IMG/VR virus record: IMGVR_UViG_3300042691_041259
Span: 138,506-202,505 of that record
DNA from: a virus
Taxonomy: Duplodnaviria > Caudoviricetes
DNA: 64,000 nucleotides
Strand: one strand, 5' to 3'
Each line of letters begins with the position of its first letter. Position 1 is the stretch's first letter. Made by a program: the position numbers and the translations under genes. The notes beneath the pieces were generated by a model. It did no database searches. It was not told where the DNA came from and saw only the letters and a program-made list of their open reading frames with translations. Of the stretch, positions 3,001 through 58,699 are shown piece by piece.

Positions 3001-6000
3001 CAATACGCAAATTCGTCAGAAGTTGCACAATAAAGCATATCGTAACCTGATCCGCCATCTCTTACAAATACCATGTTAGCGTTTGTAGAATTAGCGCTGG
3101 TTAATGTAGTAAATAAAGATGCTGTATTTGTATTGGGATCCAAGGTATAAATGTCGTTACCGATAGTTTGCCCTTCTGGATAAAAAAAGCGGTCAAGTTC
3201 TCTTACATAAAATAGTTTTTTTACATTTGCGGCAATTGATATGTTATTCTGTGTAGCGGCTTCTAAATCAATATAATATGCGTTATTTGTAGACGGTGGA
3301 ACATACACACCGTAAATAAATCCAGGGCCTCCATCAGGGCTAGGGCGATACGCGCCAGCACCGGTAAAAATACTTATTGGCTGAATAAGTGGCGGAGATA
3401 TTTCAGGATCAAGTGGATCGAACGCCCACCAAAAAGTTTTATCAGGTTGCGTAATTACAAGATCAAACTCAGTAAAACCAGGACGGACTTCTTTTAATAA
3501 GTCAGCAGTAGTTGCATACGTATTTGTATTTGTATTGTTTACATAAAACATTGCTCGATTTCCCCAATTTGCCTCAGTAGGGCTATCAAGAGTCTCAACT
3601 ACTACAGGTGCCGGATTGCCTAAAACTCCTAAATTCAAATTACCGTTCTCATAAGATTGGTTTCGGTAGTTATAGATTTGCCCACTTACCCATTGCTCGG
3701 TTATCGGCGAAGTGCCATCTGTGATGATTCCTGAATATAGTGTTGTAACAGGATCTACATTTTTTGCATATATAGGTATACCCCATGAAGCAAGTGGATG
3801 ATCTAAATTCCACCGGCTATCATTTAGTGGAGTATTATTGTCTCCTTTAAGAGTAACATATTGTCCAGGAATCAAAGTTTTCCCGTTTTCTGGAGTATAT
3901 AAATCATCTTGAATAACAATAGTATTTGCAACTTCTCTCAGGACTTCCCAAGCAGTAGGGTTTGCCTCAAAACTTGATGGCCATGCAGGCACAGAACTAA
4001 TTGTGTATTCAACATATGTCACAAAATCAGTAGCGCTAGTTGCTTCCACCGGAAACACAGATCCATCTCTACGAAGATACACAATTTCTGCACCAAAGCT
4101 TGTAGCAATTGGTCGATTCTGCACATCAGAAAGCTCCACTGTGACTACACCTGTAATAGGATTAAACTCAGTGACTTTACCTACAAGGCTATCATAAGCA
4201 GATACTTTCCATACGTCATAATCAGGAGCTTTTGGATAGTTCCAATTGTTTTCCTGGCTAAGAGGTGTTACATTCAAGGTATCCCATAGGATATCACAAT
4301 CATCCCACACAGTCCATGTTTTAATATGATTGATCCAACGGCCCCAAAACTCGTCCCACATATAAAAAGCTTCATCCCACGTGTCTACACAATTTTGTTC
4401 CATCTGTAGAATGTTTGACTCTTGGCCAGATCCATCATAAACGCCTGGTGTGTCTGACGGGCCGATATATCGTGTAGCAAACGAAGACAATGCCTCAGGC
4501 ATATATACTTCTACGTAGTCTCTTTTTATCTCGTTTACCCAATTGTTATCTGTGTCATATACAATCAGCTCTACTTTATAGAAACCTTTATACGGCAAAG
4601 GAACCGTGTGAGTAATAAGTTTGTCAATAGATTTTTGTCCAGAAGTATAAATGAAATTGCTGGTTCCTGGCTCAGATGTAACTTTCCATTCCATGTCATA
4701 AAAGTTTCCACGACCAATTTCATCCCAAGTATATAAGGTTGAAGTATGCCCGCCGGTAAGTTTTACTTCTGGCGTGGAAGTATAAGCTGACCCACTGCTG
4801 TTAATTTCAATAGCGTGTATCTGTATGTTAAAATTTCCTGGAACCGAATTAAAGCTTGTGGAAATATCAACGTAGTTTCCGCCTACCGTATCATAAGCAA
4901 GTACAACACATGGCTTATCCAAAGAATTTCCACCAGTATCAGTACCAACTACAAACATTGTTGGAAGTATCTGGACCTGTAAAGGAAACACTGCTTGTGG
5001 AGTTGCAAAAAATGCTCGAGCAGAGGTTGGCGAAAGCGCATTAATTGAAGTTACTTCAAGATCTAAAATCTTCACTTCACCGTTTCTCATATATGCAGTA
5101 GCTGTGGCATTTATGCCATCGCCACCAATAAAGTCTACGGTTGGAGTACGTGTATAACCGCTACCTGGATCTATAATTTCAATTGCTTCAATTGCGCCGG
5201 TGCCCGCTGGAAGAGGGCTAACATAGGCTTTTAGAGTTGCCTCGGTAGCGCTCCATAAGTTATCCCATGAAAATATCATTTCATCCCAGGTAACATCGAA
5301 TCCAGTTGCCTCAAGCTCAAGAAAAGCAGCTACTGGAGCATATGGCTCATTGGTAAGAACTTCTAATTGTGTCCCTTGATCAAAGTATCCTACATACGGT
5401 CCTTGAACTGTTGTGAGATTAAAATTGTACGTACATACTATTGGAAGACCTGTATCTGGATCTGCTGGCGTAAATACTGGAGGATCTAAGATTGGGTAAC
5501 CCTTTCCTTGTGTGGTTGTTTTAACGCCTTCCAACACATATTGAATATCTTGTTGATCAAGTTTAAATCCTCTGCCTACCCCTGAATAGTAAATGTTGTT
5601 TACTAAATCTTCACTTGCAACATATGTTTGTGAAAATGTTGGCGGCAGCACAAAATAACGACTTCCTTGTGTAAGCCCTGTAACCACTTCAATGTCAACT
5701 ACGTCGCCTGATCCTCCAACCGTAATTACTTTTACTCTAATTGGAGTGGAGAAAACACCACCACCCAGAGTAATAATGTCGCCTACGCTATAATCCACGC
5801 CGCCATCGGAATTCCCCGATAGCGTATATAGAGACGGGGCGGCTTTTACAAATGCAACACCATTCCAAAGTTTTGATGGCGAAGCATTTCCCGAAGTCGA
5901 ACCTACGGATAGCACTGGGATTTTGTTTACTGTGGCGAGTGGAGCCTCAATGTTTACACCTTTGATTGTATAAGTAGCAAAGTATGATTGCAAAGTATCT

Positions 6001-30043: not shown

Positions 30044-30064
30044 TGTAATATATGTTTGCTATAT

Positions 30065-30090
30065 TTATATTCGCTCATAGAAAAAAGTTT
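30065..30090 (-). promoter_or_regulatory. Bipartite promoter-like motif AAAC-N14-GAATATAA
   Basis: One of eight copies, all upstream of minus-strand starts. Confidence 0.7.
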
Positions 30091-53040: not shown

Positions 53041-53059
53041 TTTTTATTCCTTACATAGA

Positions 53060-53087
53060 TTATATTCAACACAGGTAAAAAAGTTTT
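53060..53087 (-). promoter_or_regulatory. Bipartite promoter-like motif AAAC-N15-GAATATAA
   Basis: Heads the DNA-modification operon. Confidence 0.7.
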
Positions 53088-53673: not shown

Positions 53674-54291
53674 TTAGAATAGTTTATTTTTCTTTGAGAG
53701 TTTATGTAACATTTCTCGCCCTTTCTTAATCTTATACCAGACGTCTCCTGGTTTACAGCCAATTTCCTCCGCAATCTCTTCATTGGAAGCCTCCTTAAAG
53801 TATCTCATAGAGATTGCTTTAGATATATCTTCAGGCAGCTGGGAAACAAGAAGTCTTACCAATCGCGATATTTGTTCACGGTCAATCTCTGCATTCATAT
53901 CTACTTCATCAGCGACTGCAAAGGCTTCAGCATCTCGGACATTTGTTGGACGATCATAAGAATCTGCTTCCAGCCGCTTCTTTTTTCTAGGAATACCGCT
54001 AACATAATTATGAAGACATGCAATCATCCAGGTAAAGAACTTGGATTTTTCCGGATCATACATTCTTATCTTTACAAATGTGTTTCCCAGGACTGTCATT
54101 ACAATATCTTCTAGGTCTTCCACCTGTGCTTGCGGAAGTCGACGTTTAGCAGCCGTGTATAGGATTGGCTTATACTTTCGAATGAGGATATTGTAGGCTT
54201 TAGTATCTCCTTCAATAGCAGATTTTACCAGTTCTTTGTCTTCTTCATGCGTGGTATACGCTACTGACTTATAGCCTTTTCGTGTCCTCAT
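53674..54291 (-). CDS. ECF (group 4) RNA polymerase sigma factor
   Basis: Region 2 (ELVKSAIEGDTKAYNILIRKY...EDLEDIV...YDPEKSKFFTWM) and region 4 HTH (LPEDISKAISMRYFKEASNEEIAEEIG...VWYKIKKGREML); no region 3. Confidence 0.9.
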   Translation of the reverse strand: MRTRKGYKSVAYTTHEEDKELVKSAIEGDTKAYNILIRKYKPILYTAAKRRLPQAQVEDLEDIVMTVLGNTFVKIRMYDPEKSKFFTWMIACLHNYVSGIPRKKKRLEADSYDRPTNVRDAEAFAVADEVDMNAEIDREQISRLVRLLVSQLPEDISKAISMRYFKEASNEEIAEEIGCKPGDVWYKIKKGREMLHKLSKKNKLF

Positions 54292-54297
54292 GTTTAT

Positions 54298-54323
54298 TTA
54301 TATTCTTGGAAGATTAGTAGTTT
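54298..54323 (-). promoter_or_regulatory. Bipartite promoter-like motif AAAC-N14-GAATATAA upstream of the sigma gene
   Basis: GAAAC-TACTAATCTTCCAA-GAATATAA, 6 nt before the sigma ATG. Confidence 0.65.
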
Positions 54324-55936
54324 CAGTTCTTTTGGTTTTCAATTGAATCCCATGCATCAATAATGGCTTTTGCAAATACCGGCTCGCGACCAGTCCACCC
54401 TGCAAGTACTGCGCCTCGGTAGAGGTTTTCCGGTAGAATTGAGTTATCATAGCCTGCCACTTGCACCGTGAACACATTCAGTTTTGGGTTCACCTTTTTG
54501 CGGTAGTCGTTAACGAGCTTGAGAACATCGATATGGGAACTACCCGGTGCGTGAACGTATTCAGCGTATTCTCTACGATCTCTGCCAAAAAGCTGCCCGT
54601 GTCCGGCCTGCATATCACTATAGATGAATACCGTATCATAGTGAATTCCCTTTTCCAACGCCTCTTTCCAGAAGAGCCAAATTCCATTTTCGGTAGAGCT
54701 GCCTTGTGAAGCTCCACGTCTAGATACTTCATTCAGCTGGCCCAGAAGACCGTCCCGCTTGGAAACTGGTTCAATTGACAGCTCGTCGCCAAATACTCCT
54801 ACATAGCCTTCATCAGCTTGTTTGGCAGTGATGAGCGATGAGAGATTCGCAATTTCCGCCACAGTAACGGATCCGTATTCGGAATTGAGTGTTCCCCATG
54901 CAGAACCGCTGTTGTCTGATAGGCAAGCCACTTTTCCAGCAAGTTTTGGCATATTAGAAACCGCAATGTCCATGCATTCCTCCAAACCGTCCATAAGGAT
55001 TCGTTTATGATTTACGCTTTCCCCTTTTGCGATTGCCCGGTACGCTGAATAGTAACGGAAAGGAAATTGCTTTCCAGTCAGAACTCCGCCTTTCAGTTGA
55101 TCAATTACCTTTTGAGCTATTTTCAAATCTTGGATTTCAGTAAAGATTCCACGAAGATTTCGCAAAAGCGCCATGTGAGGAACTTTGATAGTTTCCACAA
55201 TCTCAGTCCAGGTCTTGCCTGCTGAACGAAGAGTTTCCCATGTCTGTTCAGTAGACTCTACCTGGATTTTGCCAGTTTTCATAAGTTCATTGATATCATC
55301 GTTGCTAGCATGCGAGATACGTACCAGGTCAATTAATGATTTTCCTTTATACTTATTCAGCTGGTAGCGGCTATACTCCTCCAGACGTTCTGCCCATGTT
55401 CTTTTCAAAAGAGAAGGCAAACCGTTCTTGGAACCTTTAAGAAACATATAATAGTCCAACTGATTGGTAAGGTCATCAGGTCTTCCTGCAATTGATTTTC
55501 CAATAGTTTTCATATAGCCAGGATTCTGTTCATTAAACTTGGCACGTCCTATATGAACAGCAGCTCTTACATAAATCACTGCTGGATTAAGACGCATGTT
55601 GTAGACCTCACGAAGTTCTTTTGCCAGATCCAGCGTTCCTTTAAAGTCATATTCCAGGGATGCTTCAATTGATTTGGTAAATATCTCTACCACATTAGTA
55701 GAATCAAACAAACCTGCAAAAATGTTGTAAGAATGTTTTGATAAAGTTTTAGGAGATTCCAAGCCATCACGGTAATACTGCGGTTCTCCAAAAATTGAGG
55801 ATGCTGCAACAATTCGTAAAGTATCCAGCGGGTTGAGTGCGTATGATGTACCACCCATAAAGTTTTCCACAGAGGTTTTCGCAAAGCGATTCATCGTGGC
55901 AGTTTCTTTGTTGCTGTATTTAGTCAGTCTACTCAT
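54323..55936 (-). CDS. rsr: TROVE-domain RNA-binding protein (Ro60/Rsr homologue) with C-terminal vWA
   Basis: RPDDL, RYQLNKY...SLIDLVRISH, TWE, PHMALLRNL, QFPFRYYSAY, and vWA DNSGS plus IYSDMQ. Confidence 0.9.
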   Translation of the reverse strand: MSRLTKYSNKETATMNRFAKTSVENFMGGTSYALNPLDTLRIVAASSIFGEPQYYRDGLESPKTLSKHSYNIFAGLFDSTNVVEIFTKSIEASLEYDFKGTLDLAKELREVYNMRLNPAVIYVRAAVHIGRAKFNEQNPGYMKTIGKSIAGRPDDLTNQLDYYMFLKGSKNGLPSLLKRTWAERLEEYSRYQLNKYKGKSLIDLVRISHASNDDINELMKTGKIQVESTEQTWETLRSAGKTWTEIVETIKVPHMALLRNLRGIFTEIQDLKIAQKVIDQLKGGVLTGKQFPFRYYSAYRAIAKGESVNHKRILMDGLEECMDIAVSNMPKLAGKVACLSDNSGSAWGTLNSEYGSVTVAEIANLSSLITAKQADEGYVGVFGDELSIEPVSKRDGLLGQLNEVSRRGASQGSSTENGIWLFWKEALEKGIHYDTVFIYSDMQAGHGQLFGRDRREYAEYVHAPGSSHIDVLKLVNDYRKKVNPKLNVFTVQVAGYDNSILPENLYRGAVLAGWTGREPVFAKAIIDAWDSIENQKN

Positions 55937-56628
55937 AGCTTTTGATATTTGAAATAATTGATTTTGAATTTTGATGTTGGATGATTCTCCACTTCAGTGC
56001 CAATTTGGACACTGTTATTGAGTATCACATTCATTTGCTGATTCTTAAAGTACGAAAGAACATTTTTATCGGTAACAGATCGAACGTGTCTTTCATTGTA
56101 AAAGATATCAATTCGAGTCTCTTGCCATTCACATGAATACTTTAAGAACTCTTTGGCCGGATCTTTTATGCCAAACCAGTGATTTTTAGCTCTTATTTGA
56201 TGGTGATCAGCAGATCTTCCATAATGAACATTGGTAGCAACGTTCCATGGATGATAAAACTTATACCACTTATTGAAGTAGTTTCCGCGGCTATTTGAGT
56301 ATGCTTCAAATATGTCAATTTCCGGTGGCCAGGACTCCCAGCCCCACATCCAAAAAGCAGGCCACAACTTCGGCCCAGTCGGTAAGAGCGCTTCAATCTC
56401 AAAATAGCCATACCCAAACTTTTCCGTACAAGACACCAACCCAATTCCAATTGGACGTGTTTTGCCATCTTCAAATTGCTTAGGGTTTTTTTGAGTCTTA
56501 AGTATTAAGGTTTCTCCACATAATTCAACCGCTGTCGGATCATGATATGTAAGAGAACTGTCTGGATGGTGGTCACCCCATCGTTCTTGTTTAAGCCATT
56601 CATAGCCCGACCAGATTATTTTTTCCAT
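55933..56628 (-). CDS. Glycoside hydrolase family 16 (laminarinase-like)
   Basis: WPAFW...PEIDIFE catalytic ExDxxE motif; YGYFEIEALLP. Confidence 0.9.
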   Translation of the reverse strand: MEKIIWSGYEWLKQERWGDHHPDSSLTYHDPTAVELCGETLILKTQKNPKQFEDGKTRPIGIGLVSCTEKFGYGYFEIEALLPTGPKLWPAFWMWGWESWPPEIDIFEAYSNSRGNYFNKWYKFYHPWNVATNVHYGRSADHHQIRAKNHWFGIKDPAKEFLKYSCEWQETRIDIFYNERHVRSVTDKNVLSYFKNQQMNVILNNSVQIGTEVENHPTSKFKINYFKYQKL

Positions 56629-56640
56629 GCCTTATGTGTT

Positions 56641-56675
56641 TAAAAAAAAATCCGCCCATTGTGTGAGCGGATTTT
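56641..56675 (-). terminator. Intrinsic terminator closing the non-coding array
   Basis: AAAATCCGCTCA/TGGGCGGATTTT stem then T9. Confidence 0.85.
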
Positions 56676-57024
56676 CGAAATGACAAGCACGCCATTTCTT
56701 ACGCATGGCATGCAAGATCTTTTCCGAGAATTTTAAGGAGGTGTGGTTTTCGTTACAATTGTGAAGTAGCACCGCCTTCCGCATCGGAATAGTAAGTTTC
56801 CTCTTGTCCTGAGAATCTCCCGTTTGAGAGTTGACTTATGGCGTCGAACCTTTTACCTTTTCTAGCCGAGAAATAGCCGATCCGCCATCTTAGTTCCTTT
56901 TAAAGGGCGCTTTTGATTTGCGGAGGTGATTAGCCTTTTGTAGTTGTTATTGTTTTGGAGTAGCTCAATCAGCCGCTTCAGAACAGTGAGGATATATTAA
57001 AGAACGTGTATTTGTATCGGTTAC
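56642..57024 (-). ncRNA. Candidate Ro60-associated (Y-RNA-like) tandem hairpin array
   Basis: No ORF; own promoter motif and terminator; three stem-loop units each carrying GCTA(C/T)T(C/T)C, plus a 9-bp hairpin. Confidence 0.6.
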
Positions 57025-57029
57025 AGTTA

Positions 57030-57056
57030 ATATATTCTGAGAAATCAAATAGTTTC
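57030..57056 (-). promoter_or_regulatory. Bipartite promoter-like motif AAAC-N14-GAATATAT
   Basis: Just 3' of the tRNA, pointing into the non-coding array. Confidence 0.65.
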
Positions 57057-57075
57057 AGCACATATTAACTTTTTG

Positions 57076-57149
57076 TACTCCCGAAGGGATTCGAACCCCT
57101 GGCCCACAGATTAGAAATCTGTTGCTCTATCCAACTGAGCTACGGGAGC
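57076..57149 (-). tRNA. trnR: tRNA-Arg(UCU), no encoded CCA
   Basis: GCTCCCG/CGGGAGT acceptor stem, AGTTGGATAGAGC D-arm, ACAGA-TTTCTAA-TCTGT anticodon arm, GGTTCGAATCC T-arm. Confidence 0.95.
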
Positions 57150-58667: not shown

Positions 58668-58672
58668 ATTTT

Positions 58673-58699
58673 TTATATTCAAATATGAAACAAAGTTTT
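58673..58699 (-). promoter_or_regulatory. Bipartite promoter-like motif AAAC-N14-GAATATAA
   Basis: 5 nt upstream of the HYR protein ATG. Confidence 0.7.

Follow-up and report, generated by a model that had tools for sequence, protein, structure and literature searches.

Two predicted YrlA-type Y RNAs, one long and diverged and one minimal, upstream of a Ro60 homologue gene in a large phage

Ro60 proteins act together with small noncoding Y RNAs, and this study deals with a phage locus in which both partners appear to be encoded. The window, i.e., the whole stretch of DNA analyzed here, comprises 64,000 nucleotides (positions 138,506 to 202,505) of the virus record IMGVR_UViG_3300042691_041259 (Caudoviricetes) and represents the last 64 kb of this 202.5-kb IMG/VR record, which is estimated to be 66% complete. 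It carries on its minus strand a gene for a Ro60 homologue with a TROVE domain and, upstream of it, a 446-nt stretch free of open reading frames (ORFs), which is our subject. In described systems, the terminal stem of a Y RNA binds the outer surface of Ro60, and Y RNAs gate the Ro60 cavity and, in Deinococcus and Salmonella, tether Ro60 to PNPase (PMC4201824, PMC12135203).

Two described systems are close in layout. The Rsr/YrlA/YrlB systems of Salmonella and M. smegmatis (RF02553; PMC4201824) encode several Y RNAs per unit, one long and one short, on the same strand near the Ro60 gene; these RNAs consist of a CGA-type closing stem, a 5-nt loop, a second stem and YUAY. In M. smegmatis, a single precursor upstream of rsr is cleaved into YrlA and YrlB (PMC4201824). 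For YrlA-type Y RNAs, the same source gives the 5' motif GNCGAAN0-1G, YUAY, and a position on the same strand within 4 kb of Ro60. The Ro60 protein of Thermus phage phiLo has two Y-like RNA ligands, Yrl1 and Yrl2, whose genes lie upstream of its own; with host PNPase, it assembles into ternary complexes (PMC12135203; PDB 9KOP, 9L5Y). Y RNA-like RNAs near phage Ro60 genes have already been published (PMC4201824), and, in the passage of PMC12135203 that mentions them, those of mycobacteriophages, CcrColossus and Bacillus phage G are credited to Chen 2014.

An earlier note on the window, made from its letters, had ranked the locus as the strongest candidate for a new system. This ranking fails because the RNAs share their scaffold with the known YrlA family, in which it serves as Ro60-binding module, and Y-like RNAs of phage Ro60 have been published (PMC4201824, PMC12135203). 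The ORF-free stretch is very probably a Y RNA transcription unit serving the phage Ro60 homologue. It holds two Y RNAs, one long and diverged and one minimal, and is a further example of a known system. Their elements are as follows.

Approximately 56799–56992, minus strand: long Y RNA (unit 1), from a duplex test and alignment A2.
56985–56978 with 56812–56805, minus strand: stem 1 of the long unit, UGUUCUGA paired with UCAGGACA, with an extension 56992–56988/56803–56799.
56977–56973 and 56819–56813, minus strand: internal loop of the long unit, AGCGG and GAGAUUC.
56972–56964 with 56828–56820, minus strand: stem 2 of the long unit, CUGAUUGAG paired with CUCAAACGG.
56964–56957, minus strand: long-unit word GCUACUCC.
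56829–56956, minus strand: diverged insert of the long unit, about 130 nt.
56717–56791, minus strand: short Y RNA (unit 2), from alignment A1 and model R1.
56789–56784 with 56727–56722, minus strand: stem 1 of the short unit.
56783–56779 and 56734–56728, minus strand: internal loop of the short unit, UGCGG and AAAAUUC.
56778–56770 with 56743–56735, minus strand: stem 2 of the short unit.
56770–56763, minus strand: short-unit word GCUACUUC.

Both units are built on a common scaffold: a closing stem NNCYGA/UCRGNN, an internal loop of 5 and 7 nt (AGCGG/AAUAUUC), a covarying stem 2 of 9 bp, and then GYUACUUC. Read 5' to 3' in the ORF-free gaps of related loci, the repeated order is NNCYGA, A/U-GCGG, a variable strand of 8–9 nt, G-Y-UAC-U/A-UC, a middle part that varies, a run rich in A and C, the complement of the variable strand, AAUAUUC and UCRGNN. 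The short unit is this scaffold plus an apical loop of 19 nt. Eleven short-unit sequences were collected in alignment A1, from which the covariance model R1 was built. In the two helices of A1, 86.9% of the cells are paired, compared with 35–52% when the partner strand is slid, and compensatory changes occur in 13 of the 16 pairs (43 cells); none of 500 shuffles reaches these values. The 21 R1 copies outside the training set behave alike, with 88.1% paired cells versus 37–46% in the slid state and 127 compensatory cells. R1 scores the short unit of the window with 75.4 bits, and this is its one significant match in the 202.5-kb record. The ORF-free region as a whole folds more strongly than its shuffled versions (z = -5.2).

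A search with the TROVE protein of the window revealed 29 related viral loci (loci carry the prefix L below). Most close relatives show an ORF-free gap of 320–690 nt upstream of TROVE, sometimes with at least one intervening gene, and each close locus contains one long unit (150–230 nt) followed by at least one short unit (approximately 70–85 nt). There are two homologous units in the window and 1–7 per locus overall. All R1 matches in the viral loci (39/39) map to the TROVE strand, most of them within a few hundred nucleotides upstream of the gene, and this linkage extends to viral loci whose TROVE proteins are just 38–41% identical. When bacterial genomes were scanned with a TROVE profile, 80 loci emerged, mostly on contigs of metagenome-assembled genomes (MAGs) from Bacillota and Synergistaceae, plus a Bacillus isolate. 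Here, 43 of 43 R1 matches lie on the TROVE strand, nearly all just upstream and most within about 800 nt. Over contigs of phages, Bacillus phage G and bacterial MAGs together, the number of R1 copies exceeds 100, and scaffold and TROVE co-occur on the same strand in approximately 60 independent loci with TROVE identities of 34–76%. In the window, the units precede TROVE by 0.8–1.1 kb and are likewise on the minus strand, in keeping with the placement of YrlA genes on the same strand within about 4 kb. Placement varies among loci, with 0–5 intervening genes, and units are found at times downstream or kilobases away. The earlier note had proposed that one unit, from promoter to terminator, encodes several RNAs which have a constant scaffold, differ in their apical parts and are linked to Ro60, and had advised a look at the flanks of other phage TROVE genes; the scaffold copies found there, with strong covariation and on the TROVE strand, bear the proposal out.

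A blastn comparison of the region with the phage collection returned the tRNA match only. IMG/VR was also scanned for an exact motif of 15 specified bases; among the 50 matches listed, 47 lack the R1 structure and are probably due to chance, while those in L045, L072 and the L002 contig are real.

Several observations on individual loci may be added. This TROVE clade, at 45–54% identity (L088–L167), is abundant in rumen and gut MAG contigs assigned to Ruminococcus, Lachnospiraceae, Acetatifactor and Synergistaceae; it also occurs in a 743-kb contig of Bacillus sp. Brlt_9. These copies may belong to prophages, to binned phage contigs or to the cells themselves. In L015 (3298–3860), four tandem units lie upstream of a 40%-identical TROVE gene, two units with a YrlA core alternating with two minimal ones. 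tRNA-like genes are located directly upstream of distant TROVE genes in L014 (3493–3566), L018 and L019 (approximately 3798–3867) and L020 (3340–3428). Either their anticodons are unusual (UUA 'stop', AAA) or they score weakly as tRNA-Sec-like, and those of L018–L020 adjoin R1-type units; they may be tRNA-mimic modules of Y RNAs or real suppressor tRNAs. A degenerate tRNA-like element with a GTGGTTCGATTCCAC T arm, without an ARAGORN call, immediately precedes the long Y RNA of L004 (3050–3130).

The scaffold shares its plan with the Rfam consensus of YrlA, a 6-bp stem ending in CGA, a 5-nt loop AUGCU, a 7-bp stem and then CUA. As in YrlA, the arrangement of stem, asymmetric loop and stem is formed by the 5' and 3' ends, according to both covariation and the Rfam plan. 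YUAY follows directly after stem 2 in both window units (CUAC at 56963–56960 and 56769–56766) and reads UUAC in most relatives. R1 matches of 130–145 nt in MAG loci contain a GGUUCGA-type T arm, an acceptor-like stem and then a UAGCUCA-type D arm, which is the YrlA order, and a tRNA-like core is present within the same scaffold in phage G, L015 (two units), L154 and others. Because the scaffold of these relatives encloses the canonical core of T arm, acceptor-like stem and D arm, sequence comparison identifies the R1 scaffold as the Ro60-binding module of YrlA-type Y RNAs. The short unit is the YrlA binding module alone, like YrlB: it lacks a tRNA-like domain and stands beside a YrlA-type RNA in one unit, a likeness of layout.

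Units that resemble Y RNAs in shape might nevertheless act independently of Ro60, as tRNA-derived decoys, as substrates of host tRNA enzymes or as partners of another protein. The locus adjoins a tRNA gene, relatives carry tRNA arrays, YrlA RNAs are substrates of tRNA enzymes (PMC4201824), and one R1-like RNA, in L072, has no TROVE gene within 10 kb. We consider this explanation unlikely in view of the same-strand linkage to TROVE in approximately 60 loci across 34–76% protein identity, and of the fact that the conserved part is exactly the module assigned to Rsr binding (PMC4201824).

We return to the two Y RNAs of the window and to the long one in particular. Since an alignment across its insert is unreliable, stem 2 was tested without alignment, by pairing the strand after GCGG with the strand before AUUCUC (9 bp) in 14 loci. 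Cognate strands reach a mean duplex energy of -7.64 kcal/mol versus -3.39 kcal/mol for non-cognate strands, and 0 of 5000 permutations are as good. The earlier note had seen three hairpin units, A, B and C. There are two: the long RNA, spanning approximately 56992–56799 and closed by long-range stems, so that A and B are its 5' and middle parts, and the short RNA, which is C. The motif GCTAYTYC assigned to all three is indeed present at 56964, 56877 and 56770; the copies at 56964 and 56770 represent the near-invariant GYUACUUC of the family, whereas that at 56877 has no counterpart in relatives. The local folds drawn for A and B are used by the unconstrained minimum free energy (MFE) fold of the window but are wrong, and the pairings of A are not conserved.

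Words resembling a D arm (GGAUCGGCU...GGCUAGAAA) and a T loop (GGUUCGAC) occur in the insert, the latter already noticed in unit B, but no tRNA-like fold is detectable there. The units were rightly described as unlike a canonical cloverleaf: neither ARAGORN nor Rfam RF00005 calls a tRNA at 56640–57074, the tRNA-Arg being the only one, and YrlA and tRNA models match neither the window units nor the long units of 7 close relatives at E ≤ 10. A hairpin with a CGUAA loop is the sole element of the insert supported by covariation (RNAalifold and a column-pair scan of the whole long-unit alignment). Conserved words in the insert, CAGUAGCUCGG for example, correspond to the junction between acceptor and D arm in canonical units, and from the sequence we infer that the insert is a degenerate or diverged YrlA tRNA-like domain. 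Three further candidates for the insert, a loop-to-strand pairing UACUG/CAGUA, a pseudoknot in L002 and a UCGG/CGA contact, were inconsistent across loci and were dropped.

A bolder idea, which we hold to be doubtful, is that in this phage clade the YrlA tRNA-like domain was replaced by another conserved module of about 130 nt, which would recruit a partner other than the tRNA-recognizing and PNPase ones, and that the minimal units (1–7 per locus) could be Ro60 gates or sponges with distinct loops. Words of this module include CAGUAGNUCGG, CUAGAAA, GGNNCGAUU and the CGUAA-loop hairpin, and most relatives also show a hairpin with a GUACUGCUAUAGA loop. If true, phage Ro60 ribonucleoproteins (RNPs) would be modular adaptors with swappable effector domains.

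The presumed protein partner of the RNAs is the Ro60 homologue. Its TROVE domain scores 33.5 bits in Pfam (cut-off 23). A phmmer search of the PDB with the single window TROVE protein gave no match, and the family profile alone worked, finding phiLo Ro60 (9L5Y/9KOP), the closest relative with a solved structure, at 3.4e-29 and, more weakly, the human (3.8e-4) and Xenopus (0.013) proteins. The C-terminal vWA domain shows the MIDAS signature DxSxS as D341-N-S343-G-S345, with D341, S343 and S345 invariant in 16 homologues. Judged by its sequence, the protein is a true Ro60 relative.

Compared with the described systems, the locus shares with Rsr/YrlA/YrlB the strand and vicinity of Ro60, several Y RNAs per unit, the order of stem, loop, stem and YUAY, and the pairing of a long with a short RNA. 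Unlike these systems, it is carried by a large phage and its long unit lacks a detectable T arm, acceptor-like stem and D arm. A further difference is that rtcBA repair genes were not found in the 202.5-kb record, 66% of the genome by estimate, which also yielded neither RtcB nor an RNA ligase. The phiLo locus likewise has two RNAs upstream of a phage Ro60 gene. These have a CGAA-type motif; they differ in showing no detectable sequence or model similarity (R1 does not match the phiLo locus), and the Ro60 proteins are about 25% identical. The closest isolated phage is Bacillus phage G, whose TROVE protein gp540 is 51.6% identical. It shares with the window the RNA scaffold, a nearby tRNA-Arg(UCU) and an unannotated gap upstream of TROVE. 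Its scaffold, CCUGAAGCGG...GUUACUUC...AAUAAUCUCAGG, encloses a clear YrlA core that Rfam scores at 36.2 bits, below threshold; the long unit of phage G thus keeps the canonical tRNA-like core, unlike that of the window, and there are about 7 units versus 2. In phage G (L031, JN638751; 1783–1936, 3256–3881, 9361–9430), about five short units occupy a 1,059-nt gap before gp540 that is unannotated in GenBank, one YrlA-like unit lies between gp538 and gp539, and a further short unit is found among tRNA genes. Animal Y RNAs (hY1–hY5, Xenopus Y3) also combine a Ro60-binding terminal stem, an internal loop and a variable apical module, and their 5'-strand motif GGUCCGA is related to YCGAAG, a likeness of plan. 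They differ in being RNA polymerase III transcripts with a bulged-C helix and without tRNA-like ancestry.

The order on the minus strand is tRNA-Arg, promoter, ORF-free stretch with a 9-bp hairpin and a terminator at its end, GH16, TROVE and ECF-type sigma factor. The tRNA, promoter, ORF-free stretch, hairpin and terminator had all been claimed before and were recovered by ARAGORN, Rfam, motif scan and folding.

57075–57149, minus strand: tRNA-Arg, anticodon UCU (ARAGORN; Rfam tRNA, 70.9 bits).
57029–57055, minus strand: promoter-like site AAACTATTTGATTTCTCAGAATATATT, from a consensus scan.
57074–56629, minus strand: ORF-free stretch of 446 nt.
56997–57007, minus strand: leader word ACGTTCTTTAA, downstream of the promoter and 15–30 nt before the long unit.
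56687–56713, minus strand: 9-bp hairpin GCAUGCCAU/AUGGCGUGC between short unit and terminator, from sequence and MFE fold.
56641–56675, minus strand: intrinsic terminator with a 12-bp stem (56675–56647), loop CACAA and U9, from inverted repeat and MFE fold.
55933–56628, minus strand: gene of a GH16-family glycoside hydrolase, 231 aa (Pfam Glyco_hydro_16, 8.5e-13).
54323–55936, minus strand: gene of the Ro60 homologue, TROVE plus vWA (Pfam TROVE).
53674–54291, minus strand: gene of an ECF-type sigma factor.

The tRNA-Arg(UCU), directly upstream of the Y RNA unit, is the sole tRNA match of the 202.5-kb record. The stretch contains no conserved or credible ORF; an ORF of 50 aa at 56784–56632 was rejected because its start ATG is missing in 8 of 11 aligned relatives. 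The RNA array is not adjacent to TROVE; the 231-aa GH16 gene separates the two and overlaps the TROVE start by 4 nt. The genes between RNA units and TROVE vary in every relative, and the GH16 product is no part of the RNP.

The promoter-like motif AAACTW-N14-17-TATAWW occurs six times in the window, with 0.76 expected, and five of the six are intergenic on the gene strand. The promoter block is also found upstream of the long unit in L002, L003, L005, L006, L008, L013 and L027. Recurrent AAACTW-N14-17-(GAA)TATAWW sites lie at 30064–30090, 53059–53086, 54297–54323, 57029–57055 and 58672–58698, all on the minus strand; the copy at 54297–54323 falls right between the stop of TROVE and the gene of the ECF-type sigma factor. 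A 16-nt inverted repeat of 88% complementarity (57025–57070) spans the promoter region just past the tRNA 3' end and would give a hairpin in any read-through transcript from tRNA-Arg. The leader word ACGTTCTTTAA is kept at the same position in 11 related loci (named are L002–L008, L013, L027 and L030), reads TTGTTCTTTAC in phage G and shows no enrichment in the rest of the window; a function as leader, processing site or protein site is conceivable. The 9-bp hairpin has an equivalent in L002, L003, L013 and L027.

Sequences from the locus are present in RNA libraries, as contigs of three metatranscriptome runs.

56681–57109, run X11: 2 mismatches, bridging the 3' half of the tRNA and both units.
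56643–56849, run X18: 0 mismatches, ending in the U-run of the terminator.
56571–56830, run X9: 0 mismatches, reading through the terminator.

Runs X11 and X18 contain no identical contigs for the flanking genes, and this pattern fits an abundant stable RNA. The contig that passes through the terminator, and the position of this terminator 13 nt before the GH16 start, would also suit a cis-acting leader or attenuator of the downstream GH16 and TROVE genes without any stand-alone RNA. For such a leader, the variable placement of units (0–5 genes from TROVE, at times downstream or kilobases off) and copy numbers of 1–7 would be hard to explain; moreover, every unit is a closed stem structure like YrlA, and there is no conserved alternative pairing of terminator and antiterminator. 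We regard a leader as very unlikely.

Some observations weigh against a Y RNA unit serving Ro60. At the gathering threshold and even at E ≤ 10, Rfam reports neither Y_RNA nor YrlA in the window and the close relatives but just tRNAs and chance matches, which is how the check proposed in the earlier note turned out. The gathering threshold of the YrlA model (RF02553) is 69 bits, and even control phages score just 31–36 bits; YrlA matches in L004, L007 and L030 overlap tandem tRNAs and were discarded as the type of false positive warned of in PMC4201824. The 5' motif of the window, CUGAAG in UUCUGAAGCGG and CCGAUG in UUCCGAUGCGG, comes close to GNCGAAN0-1G without matching it strictly; most relatives have YCGAAGCGG, and the Rfam consensus is CgaAUGC. 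A tRNA-like domain of T arm, acceptor-like stem and D arm is not recognizable in the long unit of the window. On the window sequence alone, the local unit-A hairpin (-48.8 kcal/mol) is preferred by 5.8 kcal/mol over the long-range stem 2 (-43.0 kcal/mol); these local pairings are the thermodynamic optimum in the window only and are not conserved in relatives. The R1-like RNA of L072 has no TROVE gene within its 10-kb locus, although a more distant one may exist. A related repeat, GGAAGCGGGUAUUUUGACUUCAUCGAA, stands twice behind this RNA (29.4 bits; 733–1000), and the neighbours include an asparagine synthase. The assembled contigs fall short of proof of a stable RNA because they indicate presence only and RNA libraries can include DNA. 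Of the model, binding by Ro60, processing of the transcript to give two RNAs and the effector or partner are inferred.

That three independent small hairpin RNAs (A, B and C), loaded on Ro60, constitute a new class of guides, adaptors or decoys for anticodon nucleases is hardly credible: GCTAYTYC does occur three times within 208 nt on one strand, and the unconstrained MFE fold of the window does use local pairings of A and B, but the unit-B copy has no counterpart in relatives, the 5' strand beside the unit-A motif finds its 3' partner strand about 140 nt away in 14 of 14 loci, the scaffold is that of YrlA, and the guide and decoy ideas find no support here.

For the Y RNA unit serving the phage Ro60 homologue, the conserved structure, the linkage to TROVE and the scaffold identity with YrlA are observed, as is presence in RNA libraries. 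We propose the following course of events. The phage promoter (57055–57029) probably drives a transcript of about 380 nt, possibly joined by read-through from the tRNA, which would end at the terminator (56675–56641). This transcript would hold the two YrlA-family Y RNAs, the long one at approximately 56992–56799 and the minimal one at 56791–56717, each with a putative binding module of closing stem (...YGA/UC...), asymmetric loop (A/U-GCGG / AAUAUUC), 9-bp stem 2 and GYUACUUC. Following the precedents of Deinococcus, Salmonella and Thermus phage phiLo, the phage Ro60 would bind the handle of both RNAs; such loading is proposed because of what is known about Y RNAs, Ro60 and PNPase, phiLo included. 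The apical part may gate the Ro60 ring or tether a host partner such as PNPase, acting on structured RNAs during infection, and the insert of the long unit may recruit such a host partner.

For the window, the gain in annotation consists of two noncoding RNA genes, a promoter and a terminator, which fill a seemingly empty gap. Beyond it, the additions are modest: a scaffold model for which Rfam gave no match in the tested loci, and a lineage whose tRNA mimic appears to have been replaced. The Rfam YrlA model gives 31–36 bits on the canonical units tested and leaves the short units of the loci searched unreported. R1, by comparison, reveals more than 100 unannotated Y RNAs beside one Ro60 clade; they belong to large phages, to Bacillus phage G and to MAG contigs from rumen and gut. 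For the role of Ro60 and Y RNAs in phage infection, phage G growing on Bacillus megaterium could serve as a tractable system. Across the family, the cargo on one and the same Ro60-binding handle ranges from a full tRNA mimic through a diverged insert to almost nothing.

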